Notes: generated by a model not told the origin, from the letters alone. Positions 1,033 to 24,446 are shown, numbered from the stretch's first letter. The stretch: 24,446 bases of DNA from an uncultured Phycisphaeraceae bacterium (GCA_964637715.1 CAZWWW010000003.1:1-24446), one strand, 5' to 3'. Numbers and translations are program-made.

Positions 1033-1244
1033 AGTTCAGTGTTGCGTATTCACGATCGGTATTGGGTGGCGACCTCCACGGGTCCCGAGCCGGCCCGGTT
1101 GGCGTCGAACCCAAACTATTGTAACCTGCCCGCCCCGGCAAGCCGCCCGCGCCGCACGGAGCCGGCGGGGTTATGGCTTACGGTTGTTACGTTCAACACG
1201 GCACCCGGGTTCGCAGCGACCCGTGCAGAATACGCAGAGTCAGT

Positions 1245-3368: not shown

Positions 3369-3579
3369 TGTGGTGCGCTGCGTTGACGGATGCGTTGATC
3401 CGCGTGCCAAGGATGGGTCGCCACGGGTGCGTTCCCGCGGCGCATGACGGCGAGGCGTTTGACGGATGCAAGAGTCGATTCGGGAGGCGGTCTCGGTGTG
3501 CGGTCGTATCGGCGGGCTTCCCTGAGGCGTCGTGTGGGTACGGTTCGGTTTGTCGGTATCAGAGACGGAGTGTCATTGA

Positions 3580-4557
3580 ATGAAGAATATCGGCACCATC
3601 ATGGCGGCGATCGTCGTGGCGCTGGTGCTTGCCCTGTACATGTGCACCTTCAAGATTCGGTTTACGGAAGTGGCCATCGTCAAGACATGGGGTAAGCCCG
3701 CCAAGGAAGCGATTACCGAACCGGGCTTGAATTTCAAGTGGCCGCCGCCGATTCAAACGGTCGTGCTCTACGACAAACGTACCCGCGTGCTCGACGATCG
3801 TACGGAGGAAACGCGCACGATCGACGGCAAGAACGTCGTGGTGACCACGTTTACGCTGTGGCGCATCGCTGACCCGTCCAAGTTTCATACGAACTTTCCG
3901 AGCGGCGTGGAAGACGGCGAAAAGAAGTTGCGCACGGCGGTCATAACCCACAAGCACGCGGTCATGGGTCGTCATCGCTTTGGGGAAATCGTGTCCACCG
4001 ACCCCAAAGAGCGTAAGCTACGGGAGATCGAATCCGAAATCCGCAAGCAGATCGCCGACGATGTGTTGGACGCATACGGTATTGAAGTGCTCGGGTTCGG
4101 TATCAAGAAAATAGGGCTGCCCGAGGCCGTGACCACCTCCATCTTCGAGAGCATGAAGTCACATGAGCAGGCCAAGGCGGCGCGGTATCAGGCGGAGGGC
4201 GACGCCCGGGCAAACGACATTCTCGCCAACGCCAAGGCCGCGAAAGAACGGATTCTTTCAGCCGCCAACCAGAAAGTGGCGGACATCGAAGCCGAGGCCC
4301 AGCGCGTCGTCAGCAAGTACTACAAGGAATTCGATCAGCACCCGGAGCTCCGGATTTTTCTCGACGAATTGCGCACGACCGCTCGGGCCCTCCAGTCGCG
4401 CACGACGCTGGTGCTGCCCACCGCCGATCCGCCCTTCGACGTGTTTGATCAGGAGGCGCGGCGGCGGATTATCAGCGGCGATTCGATCGGCAACTCCGGT
4501 GCCGACAGTGGTGTACCCGTGACCGTTCGTGCGAAGCCGGAACCCGACGCAGACTGA
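3580..4557 (+). CDS. hflC: HflC-like SPFH/band-7 membrane protease modulator
   Basis: 325 aa. Single N-terminal TM helix (MKNIGTIMAAIVVALVLALYMCTF), then a motif closely matching HflC (KIRFTEVAIVKTWGKPAKEAITEPGLNFKWPPPIQTVVLYDKRTRVLD), then a C-terminal charged coiled-coil. GGAG 13 nt upstream of the ATG. Confidence 0.85.
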   Translation: MKNIGTIMAAIVVALVLALYMCTFKIRFTEVAIVKTWGKPAKEAITEPGLNFKWPPPIQTVVLYDKRTRVLDDRTEETRTIDGKNVVVTTFTLWRIADPSKFHTNFPSGVEDGEKKLRTAVITHKHAVMGRHRFGEIVSTDPKERKLREIESEIRKQIADDVLDAYGIEVLGFGIKKIGLPEAVTTSIFESMKSHEQAKAARYQAEGDARANDILANAKAAKERILSAANQKVADIEAEAQRVVSKYYKEFDQHPELRIFLDELRTTARALQSRTTLVLPTADPPFDVFDQEARRRIISGDSIGNSGADSGVPVTVRAKPEPDAD

Positions 4558-4562
4558 TCCCC

Positions 4563-5870
4563 ATGCACCAGCATAACAACCATTCACCCGCCCACGACGA
4601 CGACGACGCGCCGCCCGCGCTCAACGCGGTCGATGCCCCGCTCGACGCGGCCGGGCAATCACTGGCTGAGGCGCTGCGGGCGAGCTTCGGCATTCTGAAG
4701 ATCATCATGTTCGTGCTGTTCGTGCTGTACCTTTTTTCCAACGTGCGGCGCATCGAAAGTCACGAGCAGGCGATGACGCTACGGCTTGGGGCGCTACAAC
4801 CGGGGGTCAAAGAGGCGGGTCTGGTGTGGGCGTTCCCGTTTCCCATTGACGAAATCATCACCCTCCCCACCCGCAAGAGCAATGATCTTGTGATCGACAG
4901 CCAGACGTTCCACCGTCGCCCCAATGAGGTCGGACGGGACCTGAGCAGGATATCGCGCGGATCGTCACAGGGGCTCAACCCGGCGCTCGACGGCGCGCTG
5001 CTTACCGCCGATGCGGGTCTGGTGCATATCCGGTGGAAGGTCACCTACAAGATTGACGACGTCGCGAAATACATCACCAACATCTACGGTCGCCGGATCG
5101 AGGCGGCTGAGCAGCTTATTCAACGCACGGTGGAAAAGGCCGGCGTTCTCGTGGCCAGTGAACTCACCGCCGACGAAGTGATTCGCACACGCGTCGACTG
5201 GGTGCAGCGGGAGATGATCCGCCTGGTCAACCAGCAACTGACCGGGATAGATTCCGGGATCGTGGTAACCCGTGTTGAGATGAGTGAACGCACGGTGCCC
5301 ATTCCCGTGCGCGGGGCGTTCGACGGGACACAGGTCGCCGAAAATTTCAAGCAGAAGAGAATCCGGGACGCCGAGCAGGAGCGAACCAGAATCCTGAGCG
5401 AAGCGGCGGGTTCGTCCTATTCGGTATTGCTCAACGTGCTGGATAAGATCGATCGACGCAAAGCTGAGAGCGAGTCGGTGGATGATCTGCGAAAGCGACT
5501 CGATTGGCTGTTCGAGAACGATGCCGAGGGGGAAGCCGGTCGGCGCATCAAAAACGCAGGTACGTATCTTTCCCGCGTGGTCGGGCAGATTCAAAGCGAC
5601 GTGGAATTGTACCGTACGCTCCTGCCGGAGTTCGAGCGCAACCCCGCGTTGCTTGTAGCCCGGTTGTGGGAGAAAACGCGCGAGGAGATCTTCGACAACG
5701 ACGGCGTTACCAAGTTCTATAGGCCCGCCGGCGCGCAAATCCGTTTACACATTCCGCTTGACGCCGAGGAGCAGCGCCACGCCGAGGAACGAAGGTTGCA
5801 ATCCAAGGAGTTTGACGCCTCGAAACTTCGCCCCACGAAGTGGGTGCCCGTCGGACCGGAAGCCGAATAA
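4563..5870 (+). CDS. hflK: HflK-like SPFH/band-7 membrane protein
   Basis: 435 aa. Acidic disordered N-terminus, one TM helix (ILKIIMFVLFVLYLFSNV), then the HflK core motif (MTLRLGALQPGVKEAGLVWAFPFPIDEIITLP) and a long helical C-terminus. Starts 5 nt after the hflC-like stop. Confidence 0.8.
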   Translation: MHQHNNHSPAHDDDDAPPALNAVDAPLDAAGQSLAEALRASFGILKIIMFVLFVLYLFSNVRRIESHEQAMTLRLGALQPGVKEAGLVWAFPFPIDEIITLPTRKSNDLVIDSQTFHRRPNEVGRDLSRISRGSSQGLNPALDGALLTADAGLVHIRWKVTYKIDDVAKYITNIYGRRIEAAEQLIQRTVEKAGVLVASELTADEVIRTRVDWVQREMIRLVNQQLTGIDSGIVVTRVEMSERTVPIPVRGAFDGTQVAENFKQKRIRDAEQERTRILSEAAGSSYSVLLNVLDKIDRRKAESESVDDLRKRLDWLFENDAEGEAGRRIKNAGTYLSRVVGQIQSDVELYRTLLPEFERNPALLVARLWEKTREEIFDNDGVTKFYRPAGAQIRLHIPLDAEEQRHAEERRLQSKEFDASKLRPTKWVPVGPEAE

Positions 5871-8742: not shown

Positions 8743-10722
8743 ATGTCGCAAGTCGTTAGTTACACACTGCCCGAACACTTGAGTGCCCGGCGCACCGCGC
8801 AGCGGCATGAACGCGTTGTGCAGATCGTCGGTCTGGCCGTTGCGCTGACGTGTTTCGTCGGGGCGGGTTTGCTGATCCGTCCGGTAAACGATATCCGTAA
8901 GTCGCGACAACTGGTGATCGATCCAAGTACGATCAAGGGGCTTCCGCCGACCATTGCACTGCTGGGCAAGCTGGCGACATTCCGGGCGCTGGCGATCGAT
9001 TGGGCGGCCATTCGCGCCGAGCGGCTCAAGGAAGAGGGGAAGGATTACGAAGCCCTGCAGTTATCCAAGACGGTCTGTTCGCTGGCGCCGCGGTTTCCCA
9101 AGCTGTGGGTCTACGCGGCGTGGAACATGGCCTATAACATTTCGGTCAATCAATACACGCCGGAGGAACGCTGGCAGTGGGTCAGTAACGGCATCAAGCT
9201 CCTCCGCGACGAAGGCATTCAATACAACCCGCGTTCCGTGACGCTCTACAAGGAACTCGCCTGGATTTACTGGCACAAGATCGGGGATTTCCTTGACGAC
9301 CATCACCTCAATTACAAACGAGCACTGGCCGTGGATATGGAACGCGTCCTGGGTGCCCCACCCGTTGTGGTCAACCAACAGGAATACTTCGACTGGTTCC
9401 GCTGGATTGTCGACGCCCCCCGCGATCTCGCCGCCTTTATAGCGTCCGATCCGGACATAAAGCAACTGGTTGTGGCGTTGAAGGGGCTTGATCTCGCCCC
9501 GGACCTGTCCTTGCTCGAGTTCGTTGCACGTAACATGCGTCCCGAGCTGAGCGTCGAGTCGCTGCGGGAAGAACCGACCCCGGAGAAATCCGCCAAAGCA
9601 AAGCGGCTCGCCCTGATCACATCGCCGGAGCACAAAGAGACCGCCGACCGACTACTGGCTGCGGTTCGCTCCGACGTACTGCGCAACAAATACAAGTTCG
9701 ATCTCGATTTCATGTTCAAGCTGATGACCGAGAAGTACGGTCCGCTCGACTGGCGGAACGCCTTTGCTCATTCTCTTTATTGGTCCAGCTACGGCGACCG
9801 GATCAACAAGGGCTACGCGCGCACCGATGCGGCCGATTCCATGAACACGGCGCGGTTCGTGTTTTTCTCGCTGCAGAACCTGATCACCCGTGGGCACATG
9901 ATCCTGTTCCCCAATTTCGACGATCCGTTTTCGTCCTATATCGAGCTGACACCCGACACCCGATACATTCCCTACCTCTATCAGACCTATCTAAGGCTTG
10001 GGAAAGAGCAATTCGGTGATGACCGGCGGTTCAAGGAAGGAACGCCGGGTCCGAACTATATGAACGGGTTCGTTACGAATATGGAGCAGTGGATCCAGTT
10101 GCTCTATTTCGAGGGCGGTGAAAAGAACCTCTCGATGGCCGAGAACTTCTACGCCTGGTTGCGGCAGAACAACCCCAGTCCGGACGGTTCGACACAAGAG
10201 CGTTACACGAAAACGCTCGACGATTTCGTCATGGGACAGATTCTTGCGCAACTGGACACCTGGCGGGCGGCGGCGGCCATCGTCAGGCAGTTTACGCGGC
10301 GTGCCTTGAAGGAGTTCAGTCTCGGGCAGATTCAGCCCGCCATCGGCGCCATGTCGCTCGCCCGCAAGTGTTATGACTATTGGATGGCACCCACGAACGT
10401 CGACATCACGGAACGGCGCAAGCTTCAGGAACCGGTGGTCATGCTGCGCGACGAGATCATCGAGTTCATTCAGGATCCGCGCTACGAGCCACTGTTCAAA
10501 GCCCGTTTGTGGAAGAACCTGCCGCTGCGCCAGCGTCAGATGGCCTATGACGCGCTCGCGCCTTATTTCAAGAAGCTTTGCGCCGAGCAGGATCCGCCCT
10601 GGTCGATCATACGTGCGTTCCCCGAACCGCCCGGAATGATCGAGTTCCGCAAGACCAATATCGAATACCGCGGCGCGCCGCGTCGAAAAGGCGTCGACGA
10701 AGGTAAGCGGTTCAAGAAATAA
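8743..10722 (+). CDS. Hypothetical protein (659 aa, N-terminal membrane anchor, W/Y-rich soluble domain)
   Basis: Long ORF on the same strand 155 nt after the ABC-2 permease. One predicted TM helix (VVQIVGLAVALTCFVGAGLLI). No motif recognised. Composition and codon usage are consistent with neighbouring genes. Confidence 0.6.
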   Translation: MSQVVSYTLPEHLSARRTAQRHERVVQIVGLAVALTCFVGAGLLIRPVNDIRKSRQLVIDPSTIKGLPPTIALLGKLATFRALAIDWAAIRAERLKEEGKDYEALQLSKTVCSLAPRFPKLWVYAAWNMAYNISVNQYTPEERWQWVSNGIKLLRDEGIQYNPRSVTLYKELAWIYWHKIGDFLDDHHLNYKRALAVDMERVLGAPPVVVNQQEYFDWFRWIVDAPRDLAAFIASDPDIKQLVVALKGLDLAPDLSLLEFVARNMRPELSVESLREEPTPEKSAKAKRLALITSPEHKETADRLLAAVRSDVLRNKYKFDLDFMFKLMTEKYGPLDWRNAFAHSLYWSSYGDRINKGYARTDAADSMNTARFVFFSLQNLITRGHMILFPNFDDPFSSYIELTPDTRYIPYLYQTYLRLGKEQFGDDRRFKEGTPGPNYMNGFVTNMEQWIQLLYFEGGEKNLSMAENFYAWLRQNNPSPDGSTQERYTKTLDDFVMGQILAQLDTWRAAAAIVRQFTRRALKEFSLGQIQPAIGAMSLARKCYDYWMAPTNVDITERRKLQEPVVMLRDEIIEFIQDPRYEPLFKARLWKNLPLRQRQMAYDALAPYFKKLCAEQDPPWSIIRAFPEPPGMIEFRKTNIEYRGAPRRKGVDEGKRFKK

Positions 10723-10915
10723 ACGCCTGTCCTATGCCGCGCGAGGCGTTCCACGAGGCCTTTCTACGTCGCTACAGCACAGTCGGTTTTCGTGTGGCGA
10801 TCCGTCGCGGGCGTTCCCCTTTACAAAGGGGAGATGGTGGGGGCCGTTGCAACACAATAGTTTATTGTATGCTATTGACCGGCGGCGCGGCATCGATTTG
10901 CTTCGGACCCCGTTC

Positions 10916-12049: not shown

Positions 12050-12167
12050 CGAGCGATCTCCGAAGGGACAAGACAACAGCGTTCTAATCTCTATTATACA
12101 TCAGGCGAGGGAATGGTCAGCCGTACCTTGAAACGGTCGGCCCCGTCTCGCTACCGAGGAGCCGACA

Positions 12168-13052
12168 TTGTCTCACAATCAGCACGACCACGAGCCGCAC
12201 GCGGGCGACGATCACCAACAGGACGAGCACAACGCGTGCCACGACGACCCGGTAATGCGTCGGGCCGACCCCGCACGCGGCGGCGTCCATCAGTCGACGC
12301 GCCCCTCGGCCCTTGTGGTGGAGCTTCGGGCTCATGTGCCGTTTTCGGTCACGGCTGTCGCCATCGGATTGATCGTCGCCGGCGCGATCTGCATTATCGG
12401 GTTGTCCGGTACGCGCGGTGCGGGTTGGAACGAGGGCGTTAGCCCGGCCCATGGGCGTTCGGTCGGCACATCGCCGGTCACGAGCGAGGGCCACGACCAC
12501 GTTGACGACCGCGACGAAGCACATTCCCCCGCGCGTCTGTTCTTTCATCTCTTCCACCCGGCGCACATGCTGTTCTCCGCCACGGCGACGGCGGCCATGT
12601 TTTTTCGCTATGATCGCCGCCGGCTCAAGGCCATTATCATCGGGCTGATCGGGGCGGTCGGCGTGTGCGGCGTGAGCGATGTGGTCATGCCGCAGATTTC
12701 GCTCATGATCCTTGGAATTCATGCGCCGTGGCACATTTGTGTGTGGGAACATCCGGGGCTGGTCTTGCCGTTTGCTTTTGTCGGTGTGCTCGTGGGGATC
12801 AGTGCATCGGCCAGCGTGATGCACGGCACCATCGTGTCCCACTCGCTGCACGTCTTCGCCTCGACGATGGCCAGTATCTTCTATATGGTTGAGCCGCTCG
12901 GCGGTACGGCGTGGATCGACATCATCGGCAAGATGTTCATCTTTATCGTTCTGGCGGTCATGGTCCCCTGTTGCTTGAGCGACATTGTCTTCCCCATGCT
13001 CATGACCCGCGCGGGGCGGGACGAGTTCGAGAGAGAACCCCACGCCCATTAG
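12168..13052 (+). CDS. His-rich polytopic membrane protein (putative metal-ion binding/transport)
   Basis: TTG start preceded by GAGGAG (6-nt spacer). N-terminal ~40 aa are very His/Asp-rich (HNQHDHEPHAGDDHQQDEHNACHDD). ≥5 hydrophobic helices with intramembrane His (HLFHPAHMLF, APWHICVWEHPG, MHGTIVSHSLHVF). The overlapping 310-aa antisense ORF (12117..13049) has R/D/H-rich junk composition and is rejected. Confidence 0.55.
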   Translation: MSHNQHDHEPHAGDDHQQDEHNACHDDPVMRRADPARGGVHQSTRPSALVVELRAHVPFSVTAVAIGLIVAGAICIIGLSGTRGAGWNEGVSPAHGRSVGTSPVTSEGHDHVDDRDEAHSPARLFFHLFHPAHMLFSATATAAMFFRYDRRRLKAIIIGLIGAVGVCGVSDVVMPQISLMILGIHAPWHICVWEHPGLVLPFAFVGVLVGISASASVMHGTIVSHSLHVFASTMASIFYMVEPLGGTAWIDIIGKMFIFIVLAVMVPCCLSDIVFPMLMTRAGRDEFEREPHAH

Positions 13053-13084: not shown

Positions 13085-13345
13085 GATGGTTGATCTCGGT
13101 ACGTGAGCTTGCTCTATCGCATTCTCAATCCAAACGTAGCAGCGGATCACCACGCATGCTCTGGTGGCATCGGAACCGGACGCTACCATCGGATTGAGCT
13201 TGCTCGAGCTGACAACGCCTTGTGCCCTACAAAAGATCAGCCGTTCTTAGAGCAAGCTCTATTATTATGTAGCGGTCGAATCACCGTTTCACCCGGAGAA
13301 TCGACTCGATACGGCGATACACAATAACGGATATTGCTGTAGCGG
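13085..13345. repeat. Low-GC, highly structured intergenic element (nested stems); its right ~55 nt are repeated inverted at 24390..24446
   Basis: Nested complementary pairs: GAGCTTGCTCT(13105-13115)/AGAGCAAGCTC(13247-13257); CTCAATC(13122)/GATTGAG(13190); GTAGC/GCTAC; CACCA/TGGTG; GCTGA/TCAGC. GC is well below the window average. Lies between convergent gene ends. The segment 13289-13343 is near-identical to the reverse complement of 24390-24446. Confidence 0.5.
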
Positions 13346-16311: not shown

Positions 16312-16642
16312 ACTGTCTTACTCATCCAAACCGATTTCGGGCCGCCTACGTTTTACAGGGCAACCGACCGCACGGTATAGTCCCGCCGGTATCCTTATCG
16401 ATGCAGCACGCGACGCGTGGACGAAAAGTTCCCGAGCGGTTCAGACCCGGCTCCCGGGGTCTACATCAACCACCCGTTTCCTATCTTGCGCCTTGGCTCG
16501 CGCCGGACACGTGCTCCGCCGACACAGGCGTCGCGCTCCATCATCGTCCATTGGATCACCAGTCTATCAGATTTGAGCTCCGACAAAAGCGGCCCGGGTG
16601 ACCCCGTCGCACACCGGGGGCGCGACATAATTGGCGGTCGCA

Positions 16643-16696
16643 AAAAAGGTAGGGCAGGTCGTTCTTTCGCCAAAAGGCGGAAGGTTTACCTGCCCT
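16643..16696 (-). terminator. Rho-independent terminator downstream of galE
   Basis: On the - strand: AGGGCAGGT...ACCTGCCCT stem (9 bp, with an inner CGCC/GGCG stem), immediately followed by ACCTTTTTTGC. Lies ~78 nt after the galE stop. Confidence 0.65.
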
Positions 16697-16773
16697 GTTG
16701 TACGGGCGCCGATCCTGCCACGCACGCCCTCCGCGGCTCGGACACTCGGAAGACTTGTGCTACACAGCGCGCG

Positions 16774-17763
16774 CTACCGATCCCCAAAACCCTCAGGATG
16801 TGATTGGTGCCACGTCCATGCCGTTTGGATGATCTGCTCAATATCCGTGTATTCGGGTTTCCAACCCAGTTCCGTCTGAATCCCGGTGGGATCAGCGTAC
16901 AGTTCCGGGGGGTCGCCTAACCGACGCGACGCAGGCGCCGCGGGGATATCGTGGCCCGTAACGCTTCGCGATGCGTCGATCACCTGCTTGACGCTCGCGC
17001 CCTGACCCGTGCCCACGTTGTACGCGCGAAACGTAGCCGCGGGGTGACCCTCAACGGCGAGCCGGTGAACCGACGCCAGATCCTCGACGTGTACATAGTC
17101 GCGCACACACGACCCGTCGCTCGTGGGATAATCGACGCCAAAGACCTTGATCTCCTCCATTCGCCCCGCCGCGACTCGGAGCACGAGTGGAATAAGGTGC
17201 GTCTCGGGGTCATGGTCCTCCCCGATGTGCGCGTCCGCGGAGGCCCCGGCTGCGTTGAAATAACGGAGCGCCGTAGCCCCCAATCCCCACGCCGCGACGC
17301 AATCCTCGAGCACCCATTCGATGGCGAGCTTGGTGCGCCCGTAGGGGCTGATCGGTACCCGGGCCGCGTTTTCCGTGATCGGCACCGAGCTCGGTACGCC
17401 ATAGACGGCGCAGCTCGAGCTGAATACGAACGTTTTCACTTCGTGAACCCGGCACGCTTCGAGCAAACCGATGCTGTTGACAACGTTGTTGCGGTAGTAT
17501 TTGAGCGGGTCGCTGACGGATTCGCCCACCTCAGCCGACGCGGCGAAGTGCATCACCGCGTGAAAGTCCCCGTCTCCGAATACGCGGGTCAACAGGTGCG
17601 CATCGCCGACGTCGCCTTCAACAAGACGCGCCCGCTCATCCACGGCCGCACGATGACCCGTCGAAAGATTGTCGAGTACGGCCACGCCATGACCGGCTCC
17701 GCAGAGCGCACGAACGCAATGACTCCCGACATAACCCGCCCCGCCCGTAACCAGAATGTTCAT
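16774..17763 (-). CDS. galE: UDP-glucose 4-epimerase
   Basis: Rossmann motif MNILVTGGAGYVGSH and catalytic YxxxK (SPYGRTKLAIEW); length ~330 aa. The ORF is open to 17784, but MNILVTGG at 17763 matches the canonical GalE start. Confidence 0.85.
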   Translation of the reverse strand: MNILVTGGAGYVGSHCVRALCGAGHGVAVLDNLSTGHRAAVDERARLVEGDVGDAHLLTRVFGDGDFHAVMHFAASAEVGESVSDPLKYYRNNVVNSIGLLEACRVHEVKTFVFSSSCAVYGVPSSVPITENAARVPISPYGRTKLAIEWVLEDCVAAWGLGATALRYFNAAGASADAHIGEDHDPETHLIPLVLRVAAGRMEEIKVFGVDYPTSDGSCVRDYVHVEDLASVHRLAVEGHPAATFRAYNVGTGQGASVKQVIDASRSVTGHDIPAAPASRRLGDPPELYADPTGIQTELGWKPEYTDIEQIIQTAWTWHQSHPEGFGDR

Positions 17764-17770
17764 AGTGTGT

Positions 17771-18043
17771 CTACTCGACGACAATATCCGTCAACCGTGA
17801 GACGCTGATAACGACCGACCGCATCACCACCACCGCCCGACGGTTCACCGGCAGTTCTCCCTGGCATATATCGGCGACATAGGTCTCCTTGTTGGCATGT
17901 CCGTCACGGCAATCGTGCATGTCGGCGTCTTCAAGCACGAACGTATGGTCGGTGACCTCGGTCAGGCGACCTATGTAGACGATGGGCGTTCCGGTGTCGA
18001 GCACGACCGTGTCGCCGATCATTTGTTGTAATGCGTCGTGCAT
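17771..18043 (-). CDS. Small hypothetical protein (90 aa), possibly Sm/LSm-like β-barrel
   Basis: ORF immediately upstream of galE on the same strand. Alternating hydrophobic pattern GDTVVLDTGTPIVYIGRL...FVLEDA...RRAVVVMRSVVISVSRL is reminiscent of Sm folds. No strong SD seen. Confidence 0.4.
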   Translation of the reverse strand: MHDALQQMIGDTVVLDTGTPIVYIGRLTEVTDHTFVLEDADMHDCRDGHANKETYVADICQGELPVNRRAVVVMRSVVISVSRLTDIVVE

Positions 18044-18083
18044 GGTTGGTTTTGCTGATACTCCGGGGCAGCACCCCGCCTTT

Positions 18084-18223
18084 TAGTGCCGCGTCACAGC
18101 TGATGCTTAGGGTTCGTTGTGCGTGTCATGGGCAAACTTGTTTGCCCGTGACGGCCACCGGAACAACAGGACAAGCTGCTGCTTGCTCATGCTACCCAAG
18201 AAACAAGATGTGACAAAGCATTA
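18084..18223 (+). repeat. Structured ~140-nt repeat, copy 1a (family 1)
   Basis: ~80% identical to 19266..19405. Conserved central hairpin CATGGGCAAAC-TT-GTTTGCCCGTG (11-13 bp including one G·U pair if RNA). Terminal inverted GTCACA...TGTGAC. A partial extra fragment TCACAGTTGATG lies at ~18249. Confidence 0.7.
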
Positions 18224-18397
18224 GGCATCTTCAACAACCGTCAGCGTATCACAGTTGATGACAGCGTGGTAAGCTAACCGTGCGGTGGACAAACCGTATT
18301 AAACCCCAACTCGTTCGCGGCGCCCGGCCACAACCGCCCGCTAGGTCGCGCGCAGCGCCGACTTTACACCGCCCCCCTCCGCCTCGAACATGAGGGC

Positions 18398-19168
18398 ATG
18401 ATCGAAGCGGTCCTGTTCGATATCGGGGATGTGCTCATGCACTTTGAGACGTCACGGGCGCGGCGGTTTCTTGATGCCGCCGTGCGCCCGGTGTTCGACG
18501 GGTTGATCGAGCGGGGCCATCAACCACCGCCGTTTCGAACCTACGCCCGGCGCATCCGATGGTCGTTCGTTCGGGCGTTTATTCGATCGCGGATTGTTAG
18601 GCGAGAGGTGCCCACACTCGATGTGATGCGACGTGCCCACCAACGCATGGGTGTTTCGCTTTCCGCCGACGTGATGAATGAGCTTGCCATGCAGTGCATG
18701 CGCCCGTTCGAGCGGTTTTTCTCGACCAATCCGCAGGCGGTTCCCGTCGTGTCGCGGCTGCGTGATACGGGCTTCAAACTCGGCATCGTCTCGAATACGT
18801 TTTTCCCAGCATTCGCTATTGATGAGGTGCTCGAACGAGAGGGTCTGCTCGATCCGTTTCCCGTTCGCATCTATTCGTCCGACGTCGGGTTTATGAAGCC
18901 GCACCCGGGCATCTTTCGCGCGGCGCTGGATCGACTCGAGGTCGCACCGGAGCGAACCATGCACGTCGGTGATCTCATACGCAAAGACGTCCGGGGTGCG
19001 TCCCGCGTGGGCATACAGAGTGTGCTGATGCTACCAAAAGGGAAACGCCCATCCGGTCGGCCACAACCCGACTACGTGATTCATCAATTGACGGAATTGC
19101 TTTCACTGCCGGGCGTCAGGGAACGGGTCGGCACGTCGACACCTACGACCGTGCCCGCGCACCGCTAA
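18398..19168 (+). CDS. HAD-superfamily hydrolase (subfamily IA-like)
   Basis: Motif I LFDIGDVL, motif II IVSNT, motif III K in GFMKPHPGIF, motif IV HVGDLIRKD. GAGGG just upstream of the ATG. Confidence 0.7.
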   Translation: MIEAVLFDIGDVLMHFETSRARRFLDAAVRPVFDGLIERGHQPPPFRTYARRIRWSFVRAFIRSRIVRREVPTLDVMRRAHQRMGVSLSADVMNELAMQCMRPFERFFSTNPQAVPVVSRLRDTGFKLGIVSNTFFPAFAIDEVLEREGLLDPFPVRIYSSDVGFMKPHPGIFRAALDRLEVAPERTMHVGDLIRKDVRGASRVGIQSVLMLPKGKRPSGRPQPDYVIHQLTELLSLPGVRERVGTSTPTTVPAHR

Positions 19169-19265
19169 ATAGATGCTCACAAATGGGAAACCGAGCGATT
19201 TCACCTCGCCCTTGCGCCATAGGACACCCGTTTTCCTATTGGTTTCCCTATTGCGTGGAGTTATT

Positions 19266-19405
19266 TAGTGCACCGTCACAGCTTATTCTTAGAGTTCGTT
19301 GTGGGTGGCATGGGCAAACTTGTTTGCCCGTGACCGCCCCCCAGCAACACGGGCAAGCTGCTGCGTGCCCATGCCACCCCAAAAACAAGGTGTGACAAAG
19401 CACTA
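19266..19405 (+). repeat. Structured ~140-nt repeat, copy 1b (family 1)
   Basis: Same orientation as copy 1a. Identical core hairpin CATGGGCAAACTTGTTTGCCCGTG and ends TAGTGC...GTGACAAAGCA(C/T)TAG. Confidence 0.7.
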
Positions 19406-19629
19406 GCGTTAACGCACAGATTGTGTAGCGGCTGATCGCCCTCAACCTCCCCTTCGTGAAGGGTAGCGCGTGGGTCGGATCGTTACATGAAAACCGACTG
19501 TCCTGTGGCGTACAGCGGACGTGGGCGTTTGTCGGCTCATTGTTTGACAGGCAGCGCGCGGTATCCTGTTTCGCTTGTCGAATGAGGGTCGTCGAACCGC
19601 GAGGGGGCATAGGCGTAACGACAGCGATC

Positions 19630-20274
19630 ATGGATATCGATCTATCACCGGAACATCTCCTGTCCGCTTATGTATCCGGTGTGTTCCCGATGGCTGACGA
19701 TGAGGATGTCGTACGCTGGTTCGCCCCTGATCCACGGGCGATTATCGAACTCGACGCGTTCACCATGTCGCGCTCGCTTCGCGCGGTGGTGCGTCGCGGT
19801 ATCTTTGAGATTACCGTGAACCGCGCGTTCGAAGAGGTGATCGCCGCGTGCGCGGATCGACCCGACGGCACCTGGATTTCCGCGGAGATCGCAGACGCCT
19901 ATGTTCAACTGCACCGGCTCGGGTTCGCGCACAGTGTCGAGGCGCGGTGTGAGGGGAAACTGGTCGGCGGGTTGTATGGTGTGGCCATCGGGGCGGCGTT
20001 CTTCGGCGAGTCGATGTTTCACCGGGTGACGGACGCCTCCAAAGTCGCCCTTGCGGCGCTGGTGGGGCGCCTGCGAGATCGCGGCTTCAACTTGCTGGAC
20101 ATACAATTCATCACCGATCATCTGCGGCGGTTCGGCGCTGTGGAGATTCCCCGGTCCGACTACTTGCGGCGACTCCATCGTGCGGTTCAAGTATCTTGTG
20201 CATTCGACGACCGGATTGGTCCCACGGCGATTTCGGTTCAAAATGAACGTGACGACGCGACGACGTCTGATTAG
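19630..20274 (+). CDS. aat: Leucyl/phenylalanyl-tRNA--protein transferase
   Basis: Strong match to Aat along the whole length (LLSAYVSGVFPMADDEDVVRWFAPDPRAI...GKLVGGLYGVAIGAAFFGESMFHRVTDASKVAL). The six-frame ORF extends upstream to 19456 through repeat 1b. The ATG at 19630 (MDIDLSPEHLL) fits the family N-terminus. Confidence 0.88.
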   Translation: MDIDLSPEHLLSAYVSGVFPMADDEDVVRWFAPDPRAIIELDAFTMSRSLRAVVRRGIFEITVNRAFEEVIAACADRPDGTWISAEIADAYVQLHRLGFAHSVEARCEGKLVGGLYGVAIGAAFFGESMFHRVTDASKVALAALVGRLRDRGFNLLDIQFITDHLRRFGAVEIPRSDYLRRLHRAVQVSCAFDDRIGPTAISVQNERDDATTSD

Positions 20275-20282
20275 AGCGTTTA

Positions 20283-20392
20283 TCGTTTTCATGGGCCGGT
20301 TCTAGGACACGCGCACCGGCCTCGAGACCGGGAAGATCGCGCGGGCTGAAGCCCGCGGCTCGGAGCACAAAAACGGGAAATGCTCTAGAACA
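20283..20392 (-). repeat. ~110-nt structured repeat, copy 2a (family 2); inverted partner at 24247..24357
   Basis: The reverse complement of 24247-24357 aligns with 20283-20392: a shared TCGTTTTCATG end, a TCGAGACCGG block, and a near-identical hairpin CGCGGGCT-GAA-GCCCGCGGCTCGGA(G/A)CACAAAAACGG. Spurious ORFs 20111..20518(-) and 24066..24446(+) translate to related peptides, which confirms the repeat. Confidence 0.7.
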
Positions 20393-20441
20393 CGCACCAT
20401 CGGCATCGGACCGGGGCGTTGACCGGGAGGGTGTCGGTGTC

Positions 20442-22541
20442 ATGGGGTTGGCAGCCGGTGCGCAAGAGGGTTTGTCTGTAGTGCGGAAATCCACAAAACC
20501 ATCCCCCGTGGTTTTCACGGAGCAGCGACCGATGGATCAACCGGTGCGCGCTACGTCCGCCCAAGACGCAGAACACGCGTACACGGTCGCCGCATCGCCA
20601 GGCGCATCATCGTCACCTTTGCTCGTTGATCGGTCCGTACCGCCGGCTGGAAACGACCTGTTCCTGCGCAACATGCGTGCGCTGTGGCGGGTTGATCCGT
20701 GGTTGGCCCTGCGCGTCGACGCGGTTCGCGATGAGGATCGCCGGCCTGTGGAACCGGCGAAAAAAGGGGGATGGACGGTTCGGGCGGCGGTTCCCGACGG
20801 ACCCTCGCTGTACCTGCACAGCCGCTACGACCCGGTTGCCGAGGCACGCACCTTCGCCGAAGCAGTCACCATCGAAGACAAGTTCTGCTTCGTGGTGTCG
20901 GGGCTGGGTTTGGGTTATCACATATTGGCCTTGCACGAGCGATTGACCGGCGATGTGATTATCGTATGCGTTGAGCCCTCCATCCGTATGATCGCTACGG
21001 CGCTGACGCGCGTCGATCTCTCCGAGCTCATCGCGTCGCGTCGGTTTATTCTGCTCACCGACGATGACAAGGCCCGCCTGCATGACCGCCTTCAGGCGTA
21101 CAACACGCTCATTATGCTCGGGGCACAGTTTATCCAGCATGCGCCGTCGGTTCGGTTGGCCGCGTCCGAGCACGCCGCCGTGTCCCATGCGATCAGCGAA
21201 TTCGTCACCTACACGCGCATGACGCTCATGACCCTGGTGGCCAATTCGCAGATTACCTGCAAGAACATCGCCATGAACGCGGTAACCTATGTCTCGACCC
21301 CGCCGATCGACTTGCTGCGCAACCGTTTCTCCGGGGACCCGGCCATCATTGTCTCCGCCGGACCGTCGCTGCTCAAGAACATCGACCAACTCAAGGGACT
21401 GAAGGGGCGGGCGGTGTTGATCGCGGTTCAGACCGCGCTGCGACCGTTGATGCAGCGCGGGATCGTGCCGGACTTCGTGACCAGCCTCGACTTTCACGAA
21501 ATGTCGCGCAAGTTCTTCGAGGGCGTCGGTGACTTGTCGGACGTACATCTCGTCGCTGAACCCAAAGCGACTTGGCACGTGTTAGACAACTACCCCGGTC
21601 CGATCTCGCTGCTCGAGAACAGTTGGGCGCGGATGGTGCTGGGCGATGATCTCGCCGCCCGCGGCGGGCTCAAAGCCGGGGCGACCGTCGCGCACCTAGC
21701 GTTCTACCTGGCTGTTCATCTGGGGTGCGATCCGATCGTATTCGTCGGACAGGATCTTGCGTTTACCGGACATGTGTTCTACGTGCCCGGCGTGGAGATT
21801 CACCACGCCTGGCGCACGGAACTCAATCGGTTCAACACGATCGAACACAAGGAATGGGAACGCATCGTACGGAACCGGCCGATCCTGCGCAAGGTGAGCG
21901 ACGCCCAAGGCCGGAGTTTGTATACGGACGAACTGCTCTTTACCTATCTGGAGCAGTTCGAGACGGACGTCGCCGAGCTGCCCAATCGCGTGGTTGACGC
22001 TACGGAGGGTGGCGCGTGCATCCGCGGCACGGAAGCGATGAGTCTCGATCGCGTGGCGGCAGAGATATGCACGCGCGACATCGATCCGGAGCGCTTCGCC
22101 TACCGCCGTACGATGACCCGGCGGAACCCCGCCCGACTTCCCGCGGTGCGCGACGTGCTGACGCGCCGCATCGAACAACTGGACCGCGTGGTGACCACCT
22201 GCGATGAACTGCTGGAGGTGTTGGGCGAACTCGAAGGGCTGGCGGACGACGCGGATCGATTCAACAAACGCCTTTTGCGCGTGGATGAGCTTCGTGCGCG
22301 CATCGACAACGAACGCGACGCCTATCGCATCGTGAACGTCGCCACCCAACTGGCCGAGTTTCGGCGATTCTCAGCCGATAGGCGTCTGAGTACGACGACT
22401 CTGGACGACGCCGAGCGGGCGCGGCGGCAGATCAAACGAGACGTAGAGTTCATCACCGCGGTGCGCGACGGGGCGCTGACCGTCAAACCCATGCTCACTG
22501 CCTCCTGCGACCGCGTGGAGAAAGCGATCGAACGCTCATGA
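20442..22541 (+). CDS. DUF115 (MptE-like) / motility-accessory-factor (Maf)-like putative nonulosonic-acid glycosyltransferase
   Basis: 699 aa. N-terminal LFLRNMRALWRVDPWLALRV resembles the Maf N-terminus. Central IIVSAGPSLLKNIDQLKGLKGRAVLIAVQTALRPLMQRGIVPDFVTSLDFHE and FVGQDLAFTG match DUF115 core motifs as I recall them. GGGAGGG ~11 nt upstream of the ATG. Alternative start at the ATG at 20532. Confidence 0.65.
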   Translation: MGLAAGAQEGLSVVRKSTKPSPVVFTEQRPMDQPVRATSAQDAEHAYTVAASPGASSSPLLVDRSVPPAGNDLFLRNMRALWRVDPWLALRVDAVRDEDRRPVEPAKKGGWTVRAAVPDGPSLYLHSRYDPVAEARTFAEAVTIEDKFCFVVSGLGLGYHILALHERLTGDVIIVCVEPSIRMIATALTRVDLSELIASRRFILLTDDDKARLHDRLQAYNTLIMLGAQFIQHAPSVRLAASEHAAVSHAISEFVTYTRMTLMTLVANSQITCKNIAMNAVTYVSTPPIDLLRNRFSGDPAIIVSAGPSLLKNIDQLKGLKGRAVLIAVQTALRPLMQRGIVPDFVTSLDFHEMSRKFFEGVGDLSDVHLVAEPKATWHVLDNYPGPISLLENSWARMVLGDDLAARGGLKAGATVAHLAFYLAVHLGCDPIVFVGQDLAFTGHVFYVPGVEIHHAWRTELNRFNTIEHKEWERIVRNRPILRKVSDAQGRSLYTDELLFTYLEQFETDVAELPNRVVDATEGGACIRGTEAMSLDRVAAEICTRDIDPERFAYRRTMTRRNPARLPAVRDVLTRRIEQLDRVVTTCDELLEVLGELEGLADDADRFNKRLLRVDELRARIDNERDAYRIVNVATQLAEFRRFSADRRLSTTTLDDAERARRQIKRDVEFITAVRDGALTVKPMLTASCDRVEKAIERS

Positions 22542-24190
22542 GCGTTTCGGCTGTCATTCCCGCTGATCTTGACACCACGCCGCTGGGCACACGCAGTCGC
22601 CTGGCGGACGAGCTGTGCGGCGTGCCGGTGCTGCGCCGTACGGTTCAGCGCGTAACGCGGTGTGAGCAGATCGATGCCGTTATCGTGACCTGCCCGCCCG
22701 CTCAGCATGGGCGCTGCGCCGCGCTGCTCGCCGGACTACCGGTGCGCGTTCAGGCGGTCGACGCCGAAACGCCTCCGTGGCGCACCCTGGTTACTTCGGC
22801 CAGAAAATGGGCGCTGGATGGATGGCGCGGCGGTATCGGTGGAACGACCTGCTTCGACGAGTATGTGGACGCCCGGGTGCTGGCGGGGTTGCTTGGGGAG
22901 ATCGATGCCCGGGCGTTGTTCGTTGTCGCTCCCGGCGCGGTCGTGTTCGATTCCGATCTGGCGGACCGCATGATCGCCCACGGCCTGTCGACGCGTGAGG
23001 AGAGCAAACTCACCTTCGCCCAGACACCGCCGGGGTTGTCCGGGTTGCTGCTCAATGACGACATCGTCCGAGAGTTGGCCGAGCAATCCATTCCCATCGG
23101 CTGGGTGTTCAGCTATAAGCCTGACAGCCCCTTGAAGGACCTCGCGTTTCAGCCGTGCTGTTTCGAGGTCCCCCCGGAAGTTCGCTACGCCACGGGTCGG
23201 TTGATCGCCGATACCGACCGCACCGTAGCCCGACTGAAACGGTTGCTGAGCGCCTACAGCGACCCGGACGCCCGCACGACAGGTCGCTGGCTCATCGAGC
23301 GGGACGAAACGCACGTTGACGCACTGCCGCGCGAGATCGAACTGGAGCTAACCACCGACGACCCTTATCCCGAGAGCGTTCTTCGACCGCGCGGACCGAG
23401 ACTGGATCGATCAGGCCAAGCAGACGTTGAACTCGTCGAGCGGGTGATCGACGACTGGTGCCGGTTTGACGACACGTTGCTTGTTTTGGGCGGGTTCGGC
23501 GATCCGCTGCGGCATCCGGCCTTTGACCGTATTCTGGCCCTGGCGTCTCGCGGACTAAGCGATGGGACGCGGGGTTTGTGCGTGCGTACAACGGCGGTCG
23601 ATCTCGACGAGACGTGCATCGACACGATCATCGAACACCCGTTTGACGTGCTCAGTGTTGCGCTTGACGCCTGGACCGCTGAGCGCTATGCGTCGCTTCA
23701 GTCACCCGGCGCTACGGACCGATCCTTACTCGATGCCGTCGTCGGCCACCTTGATCGCTTGGCCGAACGGCGCATCGCACACCGCCACGTAACGCCCATT
23801 GTCGTGCCGGAGTTTACCAAAGCCGAACAAAACGTTGACGAGCTGGACGCGTTTCACGACGGGTGGCTCCGCAAGGTCGGTGCAGTCTGCATCACCGGTG
23901 CTGGTCATTACGCCGGACAATGTCCGAACCATGCCGTGATGAACATGGCTCCGCCTGCGCGAACGCCGTGTCGTCGGATCGTGTCGCGTTGCATGGTCCT
24001 CTGCGACGGGCGCGTCGTCGCCTGCGATCAGGACTTTCGTGGCTTGCACCCCCTTGGGAACTTGAATGAGCAACCACTTGAAACGATCTGGTCCGGTGAA
24101 TCGTTCATGCGAATGCGTAGCGCTCACCAAGCCCTGGATCTCAGCCCTTTTCCGTTGTGCGGTGCGTGCGACGAATGGCATAGACCGTAG
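22538..24190 (+). CDS. Fusion protein: N-terminal cytidylyltransferase-like (CMP-sugar synthetase fold) + radical-SAM-like half-barrel lacking CX3CX2C + SPASM/twitch-like Cys-rich C-terminus
   Basis: ATGA overlap with the upstream gene. N-terminus AVIPADLDTTPLGTRSRLADELCGVPVLRRTVQRV...IDAVIVTCP resembles KdsB/NeuA/SpsF-type nucleotidyltransferases. Mid-region LVLGGFGDPLRHPAFDRILAL resembles the radical SAM GGEPLLhP motif, but there is no CxxxCxxC anywhere. C-terminus CRRIVSRCMVLCDGRVVACDQ...PLCGACDEWH is SPASM-like. Confidence 0.6.
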   Translation: MSVSAVIPADLDTTPLGTRSRLADELCGVPVLRRTVQRVTRCEQIDAVIVTCPPAQHGRCAALLAGLPVRVQAVDAETPPWRTLVTSARKWALDGWRGGIGGTTCFDEYVDARVLAGLLGEIDARALFVVAPGAVVFDSDLADRMIAHGLSTREESKLTFAQTPPGLSGLLLNDDIVRELAEQSIPIGWVFSYKPDSPLKDLAFQPCCFEVPPEVRYATGRLIADTDRTVARLKRLLSAYSDPDARTTGRWLIERDETHVDALPREIELELTTDDPYPESVLRPRGPRLDRSGQADVELVERVIDDWCRFDDTLLVLGGFGDPLRHPAFDRILALASRGLSDGTRGLCVRTTAVDLDETCIDTIIEHPFDVLSVALDAWTAERYASLQSPGATDRSLLDAVVGHLDRLAERRIAHRHVTPIVVPEFTKAEQNVDELDAFHDGWLRKVGAVCITGAGHYAGQCPNHAVMNMAPPARTPCRRIVSRCMVLCDGRVVACDQDFRGLHPLGNLNEQPLETIWSGESFMRMRSAHQALDLSPFPLCGACDEWHRP

Positions 24191-24246
24191 GCACGCATGG
24201 CGACCACCGGACCGTCGCTTCCTCAATCAAGTGTTGACCGGCAGAA

Positions 24247-24357
24247 TACCTAACGCAGGTTCCGTTTTTGTGTTCCGAGCCGCGGGCTTGAGCCCGCGCG
24301 ATCGTACCGGTCTCGATGGCGGTTCAACCGCCAAAGACCCGGCACATGAAAACGAAA
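24247..24357 (+). repeat. ~110-nt structured repeat, copy 2b (family 2), inverted relative to 20283..20392
   Basis: See copy 2a. Hairpin CGCGGGCT-TGA-GCCCGCG. Begins ~57 nt after the stop of the 22538..24190 gene. Confidence 0.7.
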
Positions 24358-24389
24358 AACGCTCGCCATGCCGCAAGAACGGACCCGAT

Positions 24390-24446
24390 TGTCTACAGCA
24401 ATATCCGTTATTGTGTATCGCCGTATCGAGTCGATTCTCCGGATGA
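24390..24446. repeat. Inverted partial copy of the right end of the 13085..13345 element (family 3), truncated by the window end
   Basis: The reverse complement of 24390-24446 is TCATCCGGAGAATCGACTCGATACGGCGATACACAATAACGGATATTGCTGTAG. This matches 13289-13343 with one mismatch. It likely continues beyond the window. Confidence 0.65.

Follow-up and report, generated by a model that had tools for sequence, protein, structure and literature searches.

The 24,446-nt contig CAZWWW010000003.1 of an uncultured Phycisphaeraceae bacterium (GCA_964637715.1), referred to here at its full length as the window, carries two adjacent genes that encode a Maf-like putative glycosyltransferase and a fusion protein with a SPASM domain (together, Maf-SPASM) and that are flanked by inverted copies of a structured repeat, which we call F1. 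We conclude, with a probability of about 85%, that the two F1 arms are independent copies of a dispersed, nonautonomous repeat and that Maf-SPASM is an old, fixed operon and not a cassette. F1 would be one of at least four structured repeat families that came to occupy intergenic gaps in this Phycisphaerae genome, and the likeliest source of its copies would be mobilization in trans into gene-free gaps, either of the type known for repetitive extragenic palindromic (REP) sequences and REP-associated tyrosine transposases (RAYTs) or of the type known for miniature inverted-repeat transposable elements (MITEs). The flanked genes would be the distal part of an ancient chromosomal operon, aat-Maf-SPASM, vertically inherited in Phycisphaerae. 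The window is an entire contig of a metagenome-assembled genome (MAG); a JGI contig (L119) is identical to it across positions 17654 to 24446 and continues for 3.35 kb beyond its end, and repeats and genes were analyzed over the combined 27.8 kb. The genes and F1 copies concerned are as follows, in window coordinates.

19630..20274, + strand: aat, leucyl/phenylalanyl-tRNA-protein transferase, with the start of the JGI gene call; first gene of the conserved aat-Maf-SPASM block
20272..20391, + strand: F1 repeat copy a (nhmmer E = 1.1e-37); its leading TAG is the aat stop codon
20335..20364, + strand: REP-like core hairpin within F1 copy a (GATCGCGCGGGCTGAAGCCCGCGGCTCGGA), a motif common to Phycisphaerae genomes and found beside RAYT genes elsewhere
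20532..22541, + strand: gene 1, Maf/MptE-like (DUF115) putative glycosyltransferase (PF01973)
22538..24190, + strand: gene 2, 550-aa cytidylyltransferase-fold/radical-SAM-fold/SPASM fusion; its start overlaps the Maf stop (ATGA)
24246..24366, - strand: F1 repeat copy b (nhmmer E = 4.1e-36), inverted, 83% identical to copy a, with more degenerate ends
24274..24303, - strand: REP-like core hairpin within F1 copy b

The longest aat open reading frame (ORF) begins at 19456, and that of gene 1 begins at 20442, with the JGI call and the homologues favoring a gene 1 start at 20532 or later. An earlier note on this DNA had drawn attention to the inverted repeats around Maf-SPASM, and repeat finding, BLAST, and shuffling agree that they are real and far beyond chance. 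The repeat finder delimited arms at 20274-20388 and 24250-24364 (115 nt, 81% complementary, 3,861 nt between the arms), BLAST of copy a against copy b gave 83.5% identity across 103 nt (E = 8e-25 within the 27.8 kb), and the pairwise alignment of the two consists of long blocks of identity. A 30-nt core, GATCGCGCGGGCTNAAGCCCGCGGCTCGGA, has only two sites in the window and none in 100 shuffles. The Logan contig of this locus ends within copy a, which is usual assembler behavior at repeats. Copy b starts 56 to 60 nt past position 24190, matching the ~57 nt first reported; copy a had been placed 9 nt after the aat stop, whereas the family alignment sets its 5' end at ~20271-20274, overlapping the TAG stop at 20272-20274.

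The pair had also been described as bracketing Maf-SPASM exactly. An inverted pair does flank the two genes, but it is not unique, as a third F1 copy lies outside the window past the next gene, a response regulator, whose stop it abuts (L119:7911-8018). This copy is 88% identical to copy a and is thus closer to copy a than copy b is. For two of the three copies, the TAG at the end of F1 doubles as the stop codon of the upstream gene, namely that of aat and that of the response regulator (L119:7911-7913). The window aat is four codons longer than in the closest relative, extending to the TAG of F1, and F1 insertions appear to have replaced the native ends of the aat and response-regulator genes.

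F1 is not the only repeat here. Self-comparison of the 27.8 kb revealed three more structured repeat families (F2, F3, and F4), 70 to 145 nt long and all with terminal inverted repeats, whose copies within the window are the following.

10770..10841, + strand: F2 repeat copy a
13246..13342, + strand: F3 repeat copy a
18082..18224, + strand: F4 repeat copy a
19264..19406, + strand: F4 repeat copy b, 85% identical to copy a
19439..19510, - strand: F2 repeat copy b, 78% identical to 10770-10841
24393..24446, - strand: F3 repeat copy, clipped by the window end and running on to ~24489 in L119

Two further F3 copies lie beyond the window, one on each side of the response-regulator gene, and F4 relatives were found in other Phycisphaerae MAG loci. 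The direct F4 pair brackets a HAD hydrolase gene and an inverted F3 pair brackets the response-regulator gene, such that HAD, Maf-SPASM, and the response regulator are three successive units, each lying between a pair from one repeat family. Altogether, 11 elements of the four families make up 28% of the intergenic DNA and are present in seven of the nine intergenic gaps of at least 187 nt. By our own combinatorial estimate, three F1 copies distributed over nine large gaps would yield an adjacent pair in more than half of random placements, with half of those pairs inverted. The opposite-facing F1 copies around Maf-SPASM are therefore attributed to repeat density and not to a cassette, and their arrangement around the two genes is coincidental. 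The significance that had been attached to the bracketing falls away with this result, given that the repeats proved to be dispersed REP/MITE-like elements.

The gene order tells the same story from the side of the genes. Gene 2 has more than 120 full-length homologue clusters at 48 to 65% identity, from Planctomycetota/Phycisphaerae where the source is named, and we compared its context in 10 lineages (the window and nine homologue loci). The order aat-Maf-SPASM, in the same orientation, recurs in five other lineages, L121/122 (62%), L123/124 (65%), L125/126 (57%), L147 (53%), and L148 (52%), and these relatives retain the ATGA overlap between Maf and SPASM. The HAD gene lies upstream in L123 and L147, and the same response regulator lies downstream in L123, the closest relative, which is colinear with the window from HAD to the response regulator. 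A different small gene precedes Maf in L143 and L146, and two of the 10 lineages (L144 and L145) have the SPASM gene without Maf. Maf and SPASM thus occur together in eight of the 10 lineages, in one orientation in all eight. This conservation suggests that aat-Maf-SPASM constitutes one operon. As a separate observation, aat is directly upstream of the Maf-like gene in six lineages (the window, L121, L123, L125, L147, and L148), without an apparent functional tie between aat and a glycosylation-type pair.

None of F1 to F4 was found at the matching gaps of the relatives, where REP-like matches were significant only upstream of the solitary SPASM gene in L145. The gap between aat and Maf ranges from a 4-nt overlap to 199 nt in the relatives and is 257 nt in the window, and the three gaps from HAD to the response regulator measure 23/178/203 nt in L123 versus 461/257/773 nt in the window, a difference of about the size of the inserted elements. 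The context of the two genes is thus conserved across genomes that lack the repeats, which, like the dispersal of the repeats, is an outcome that the earlier note had named as refuting its reading.

These comparisons weigh heavily on the proposal that the two genes form a mobile or invertible cassette, in which Maf-SPASM would either lie in a composite transposon that ends in the F1 copies or form an invertible segment with crossover at these copies. Such an arrangement would account for an inverted ~115-nt pair with 81 to 83% identity around exactly one transcription unit, and there is no physical bar to homologous recombination across inverted repeats of ~100 nt. Yet the same genes follow aat in the same orientation in five lineages without repeats, and their place after aat is fixed. 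The locus has one orientation in three independent assemblies (the NCBI contig, JGI, and Logan), as do the genes in the eight lineages, and no recombinase or transposase, RAYT included, was found among the window ORFs. The third F1 copy and the other families bracket neighboring genes as well, and the GC content of the segment (0.61 to 0.66) is not distinct from that found elsewhere (0.57 to 0.62). With the repeats dispersed and the operon conserved without them, we consider a cassette extremely unlikely.

F1 itself is a mosaic element of ~115 to 120 nt. Its termini are inverted repeats (TAGAGCrTTT...AAAyGCTCTA), and it also contains an inner hairpin that is variable and a GC-rich hairpin that is REP-like. 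Each copy is predicted to self-fold into a compound hairpin with an outer stem, the variable inner hairpin, and the GC-rich hairpin GCGGGC-UGAA-GCCCGC, with single-copy fold energies of -44.5 to -53.4 kcal/mol (z = -2.4 to -4.4 for folds of -49 to -53 kcal/mol). The outer stem comprises 18 pairs and is 80% paired, versus 37 to 50% with the partner columns slid; its covariation was no more than in shuffles, a pattern better explained by conservation of the terminal repeats than by selection on an RNA fold. Three other readings of the hairpin, as an attC site of an integron, as a CRISPR unit, and as an intrinsic terminator, were rejected, in view of copies that are inverted and not direct, the lack of a GTTRRRY core, mutually similar array "spacers," and the lack of a U-tract.

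The stable folds and negative z-scores could be taken as signs that F1 works as a structured RNA under selection for its fold, be it a small RNA gene, a cis-regulatory element, or a terminator, and two of the three copies abut a stop codon, where 3'-end stabilizers and terminators sit. Several results run counter to this reading. RNAalifold of 12 F1 copies kept only the invariant REP hairpin and detected no compensatory changes, the inner hairpin varies between copies, F1 copies face either way with respect to the gene upstream of them, and no U-tract follows the hairpin. Promoter and terminator scans gave signals at background level, and Rfam returned no match in the whole window at gathering thresholds and none for copy a even at E ≤ 1. 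Because RNAalifold found no compensatory pairs and covariation in the outer stem stayed at shuffle level, we dropped the selected-fold reading, which we judge very unlikely.

The earlier note had also raised panhandle-type regulation, in which F1a and F1b would pair over ~100 nt on an aat-Maf-SPASM or Maf-SPASM transcript and the stem would control stability, RNase III processing, or translation. Energetically, the predicted duplex (-176 kcal/mol) exceeds both self-folds combined (-101 kcal/mol), and copy a sits within the conserved operon, between aat and Maf. On the other hand, each copy forms a stable local hairpin cotranscriptionally and hence first, the third F1 copy past the next gene has equal complementarity, covariation is lacking both between and within copies, and transcription as far as F1b is unsupported. 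A dedicated panhandle is thus very unlikely, as the repeats also occur away from the gene pair and relatives keep the same operon without any repeat; if a panhandle exists, it is at most an accidental, lineage-specific by-product outside the module.

In E. coli, REP hairpins protect upstream mRNA 3' ends or cause partial attenuation inside operons. By analogy, 3'-end protection or partial attenuation would be the more likely consequence of having copy a between aat and Maf.

How the dispersed F1 copies may have moved is best approached through the GC-rich hairpin. We surveyed exact matches to its 20-base core (GCGGGCTNAAGCCCGCGGCTC) with one genome per species, the counts being lower bounds, and obtained at least 144 matches in at least 118 loci, with ~60 assemblies among the matches listed. 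Almost all hosts among these listed matches are MAGs from Phycisphaerae or from unclassified Planctomycetota, with several contigs apiece. Inverted doublets separated by 30 to 75 nt, as in REP doublets forming hairpins (REPINs), are common among the sites, some sites form short tandem arrays, and the flanks vary by locus. The hairpin is thus a GC-rich palindrome with many copies per genome and frequent inverted doublets, as is typical of REPs. A codon-phase test placed 11% of core sites, versus 31%, within continuous coding phase, a weak extragenic preference; a test of intergenic location based on the longest spanning ORF was uninformative in these GC-rich genomes. Three matches listed carry labels from outside Planctomycetota, namely Alcaligenaceae (L019), Blastomonas (L069), and "Candidatus Bipolaricaulota" bin446 (L091). 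The Blastomonas match lacks the usual flank and is probably due to chance, and L091 has an F1-like 3' tail and may be mislabeled or contaminated.

Near-full-length F1 relatives were identified in several MAGs (L079, L099, L113, L045, L105, and L078) and, at 86 to 97% identity, on four contigs of metagenome Ga0114931. Relatives in MAGs and metagenomes have a common 3' tail (...ACAnAAACGGGAAAyGCTCTAg) and a complementary 5' end. A metagenome scan with an F1-specific 19-base pattern hit 16 loci, five of which are F1, the rest being chance matches in an unrelated conserved gene.

The link to a transposase comes from locus L096, outside the window, where a 176-aa gene with HUH and Tyr motifs (L096:4657-5187) lies between inverted REP hairpins at 4639(-) and 5220(+). 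Homologues at 65 to 72% identity bear the name "REP element-mobilizing transposase RayT," and the gene itself has subthreshold matches to NF047646 (E = 1e-8) and PF01797. At this locus, inverted REPs thus lie on both sides of a Y1 (HUH) transposase gene, and with the association between REP and RAYT observed there, we interpret the hairpin as the REP component of a RAYT system widespread in Phycisphaerae and F1 as a mosaic derivative with one REP, similar to a bacterial interspersed mosaic element (BIME) or a MITE. Since the REP hairpin forms doublets and flanks RAYT genes in related genomes, REP/RAYT-type (or MITE-type) mobilization is the likeliest source of the F1 copies, and we infer that F1 may have been moved by a RAYT-type enzyme.

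In comparison with the REP/BIME/REPIN and RAYT systems of E. coli and Pseudomonas (PMC3733652), the Phycisphaerae hairpin is likewise short, GC rich, present in many copies, apparently mostly intergenic, frequently arranged in inverted doublets with a 30- to 75-nt spacer, combined in mosaics with other motifs, and found around a single Y1 (HUH) gene lying between inverted copies (L096). It differs in its unpaired tail: REP superfamilies carry a GTAG or CGTC tag beside the palindrome (PMC3733652), whereas the tail here is GCTC/GAGC (conserved as GGCTC, or GAGCC on the other strand). It also differs in breadth, with the 20-base core found unchanged in ~60 species genomes across a class, a wider spread than most REP families have. 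Furthermore, F1 holds a single REP inside a ~115-nt unit with its own terminal repeats.

In these last respects F1 resembles bacterial MITEs such as the Correia elements of Neisseria, with which it shares a length of 100 to 150 nt, terminal inverted repeats, a compound hairpin, TA at both flanks, insertion beside or into gene ends, and absence from the orthologous sites of relatives. It is therefore possible, though not likely, that an IS630/Tc1-like DDE transposase, which targets TA, moved F1 as a classical MITE and that the REP hairpin is a passenger. The terminal inverted repeats of ~18 nt (80% paired), the size of 115 to 120 nt, the presence of three copies in the 27.8 kb and of others in other genomes, the vacant orthologous sites, and the TA at both ends of four well-delimited copies (window copy a, L129, L131, and L138) are all as expected of a MITE. 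However, the flanking T-TA-G/C-TA-A is itself within the inverted terminus, so no target duplication is proven, and no parent insertion sequence with F1 ends was seen in the sequence examined. Moreover, the sole transposase tied to any part of F1 is RAYT-like, and its REP hairpin is tied to a tyrosine (Y1) and not to a DDE transposase.

Several points weigh against our conclusion that F1 arms are independent copies spread by REP/RAYT-type mobilization around an old operon. The F1 count is based on three copies in 27.8 kb, and neither RAYT nor other transposase genes occur across that length. F1 has one REP hairpin and no doublet, combined with terminal repeats and, in several copies, TA flanks, and could be a DDE-transposase MITE merely carrying a REP; its tail also departs from the tags cited above. 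The F1a:F1b RNA duplex is favored over self-folds of -51 and -50 kcal/mol, and an effect of this modeled duplex on the transcript is possible. The SPASM gene lacks Maf in two of 10 lineages, and the function of the gene pair is deduced from domains only.

The survey of REP cores also turned up insertions of another kind, in coding genes. In Phycisphaerae MAG Bin_14R (L042:425-5065, - strand; JAJVHU010000013.1), a 1,546-aa valyl-tRNA synthetase (ValRS; valS) ORF contains three in-frame, stop-free REP-hairpin insertions, with ValRS Pfam domains on both sides in the same frame. One of these is a whole RAYT-like gene (HUH and Tyr motifs) between REP doublets, translating as EPRGFSPRE...ARAEARGS, and another is a solo REP doublet in the anticodon-binding domain. 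These insertions recall the Rickettsia palindromic elements, which occur in coding genes. In a Planctomycetales MAG (L112:908-3550, - strand; CAZQEN010000203.1), an 880-aa PurH (purH) ORF carries ~330 extra aa, inserted in frame at the conserved junction ...EF/AVxxKHxNPCG. The insertion comprises a RAYT-like gene that is bordered on one side by three inverted REPs and on the other by three direct REPs, 78 nt apart. The frame is kept in all four insertions of L042 and L112, which is unlikely by chance. Because each of the best 120 RAYT homologues in the protein database is a stand-alone protein (116 to 296 aa), RAYT/REP fusions inside host genes are either rare or not called as single genes.

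Turning to the genes themselves, the identity of aat is clear (TIGR00667, 212.7 bits, above cutoff). Gene 1 had been called Maf/DUF115-like, and this call is upheld by a match to the full MptE-like profile PF01973 (residues 274-442, 139.9 bits versus a cutoff of 34.6, E = 9.5e-41). Similarity to the PseD/Maf model NF050051 is end to end (E = 1e-26) at 93.8 bits versus a cutoff of 670, and the N-terminal domain PF20157 scores below cutoff (16.4 versus 23.5). Judging from these profiles, gene 1 is similar to characterized Mafs and not an equivalog. Like Maf flagellin glycosyltransferases, gene 1 has a central MptE-like/DUF115 domain and full-length PseD/Maf similarity. Unlike them, it scores far under the PseD equivalog cutoff, and its locus follows aat among housekeeping genes, outside any flagellar or nonulosonic acid cluster.

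The description of gene 2 as a fusion of cytidylyltransferase, radical-S-adenosylmethionine (SAM)-like, and SPASM parts is borne out by fold comparison and by the SPASM profile, but the protein lacks the CxxxCxxC motif. Residues 1-215 have a cytidylyltransferase fold, residues 260-450 a radical-SAM TIM-barrel fold, and residues 478-545 a SPASM/twitch domain (PF13186, 44.1 bits versus 21.5, E = 2.5e-11). The N-terminal domain was recognized by fold comparison only, in which it matches solved cytidylyltransferases: searching the PDB with the sequence of the first 240 residues gave nothing meaningful, and no Pfam cytidylyltransferase model matches gene 2, with PF12804 precomputed for several homologues. 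A PDB profile search hit the BtrN auxiliary-cluster domain (E = 4e-7) and, weakly, IspD cytidylyltransferases (E = 0.07 to 0.9). The partial TIM barrel resembles solved radical SAM enzymes in fold, with a PF04055 Radical_SAM score of 20.4 versus a cutoff of 29.5. The site expected for CxxxCxxC reads ELELTTDDPYPES (TTDDPYP); the motif is absent from gene 2 and from all 34 aligned homologues, none of which has a conserved Cys between residues 60 and 478. As judged from these residues, the radical-SAM part presumably cannot bind a SAM cluster or perform radical SAM chemistry.

Across the 34 homologues, C478, C496, C541, and C544 are invariant and C485 is conserved in at least 90%. These ~5 conserved Cys are fewer than in a full two-cluster SPASM domain and are enough for one auxiliary cluster. 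In this gene 2 is unlike BtrN, anSME, SuiB, and SkfB, as it lacks CxxxCxxC and is left with one auxiliary cluster's worth of Cys (478, 485, 496, 541, and 544). Its best NCBIfam match is TIGR04321 "spiro-SPASM" (E = 1.7e-32), at 112.8 bits versus a cutoff of 250 and over residues 220-548 only, the N-terminal 220 residues lying outside the model; its clade belongs to Planctomycetota (Phycisphaerae) and not to spirochaetes. The pair, which is maintained after aat throughout Phycisphaerae, is distantly related to the spirochaete "spiro-SPASM" family.

Maf-2 enzymes depend on a cis-encoded partner located downstream, GlfM (89 aa, four-helix) (bioRxiv 10.1101/2023.12.03.569772), and Maf-SPASM resembles this system in having a conserved, cis-encoded partner gene directly downstream. 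The partner here differs from the 89-aa GlfM in being a 550-aa cytidylyltransferase/radical-SAM-like/SPASM protein. Translational coupling, co-occurrence in eight of 10 lineages, and the Maf-2 precedent of a downstream partner indicate that the Maf-like and SPASM-fusion proteins work together. The N-terminal nucleotidyltransferase domain of gene 2 would activate a sugar or acid as a nucleoside monophosphate conjugate, and the Maf-like enzyme would transfer the activated donor to a protein acceptor, a division into donor activation and transfer that we only infer. In the C-terminal half of gene 2, a single auxiliary Fe-S cluster is probably retained, serving as a structural or redox-sensing scaffold, and the clusterless radical-SAM half is likely structural or regulatory.

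A classical flagellin system is disfavored by the neighborhood. As first noted, the window lacks flagellin and NeuB/PseI-type genes (none among the 20 main ORFs scanned), and no flagellin or nonulosonic acid (Pse/Leg/Neu) genes were found nearby in the window ORFs or in the ten homologous contexts; the surroundings are housekeeping in nature (aat, HAD, and dnaX-ybaB-recR). We speculate, with considerable doubt, that the pair is an undescribed protein-modification system outside flagellar and nonulosonic acid loci, in which a nucleotidyltransferase, joined in one protein to a radical-SAM scaffold that has lost its catalytic activity but retains one Fe-S cluster, would supply or gate the activated donor for the Maf-like transferase. 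As a lineage-specific extra, the ~100 nt of end-to-end complementarity contributed by the REP-containing repeats may possibly modulate transcript stability.

Elsewhere in the window, positions 1173-5870 hold an unusual run of paralogues, three successive SPFH/Band-7 domain genes that encode 731, 325, and 435 aa; a 71-aa ORF separates the first from the second, and an ABC ATPase/ABC-2 permease pair comes after the run. Two ORFs, 8743-10722 (+, 659 aa) and 12117-13049 (-, 310 aa), have no Pfam match at E ≤ 0.01. A gene-free stretch of 462 nt at 16312-16773 has no detectable repeat, Pfam-supported ORF, or Rfam match, and the same applies to 359 gene-free nt between two direct F3 copies, from window 24490 to ~24848 (L119 6837-7195).

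Overall, the repeats belong to known kinds (REP/BIME/MITE) and the proteins to known, uncharacterized families (Maf-like and of spiro-SPASM-type architecture); literature searches found no publications on the spiro-SPASM family, on Maf with SPASM, or on REPs in Phycisphaerae. In repeat-rich genomes, inverted REP/MITE-like copies bracket single operons by chance, and such brackets should not be read as cassettes. The more unusual by-products of this analysis are the class-wide exact REP core and the in-frame RAYT/REP units within valS and purH in two MAGs. The exact core in ~60 Phycisphaerae species genomes, together with its RAYT, is a clade-wide marker and a system for studying long-term REP/RAYT coinheritance outside Proteobacteria. 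The aat-Maf-(cytidylyltransferase/dead radical-SAM/SPASM) operon gives functional context to the uncharacterized spiro-SPASM-type architecture and is a defined, testable candidate for glycosylation-type modification in Planctomycetota.

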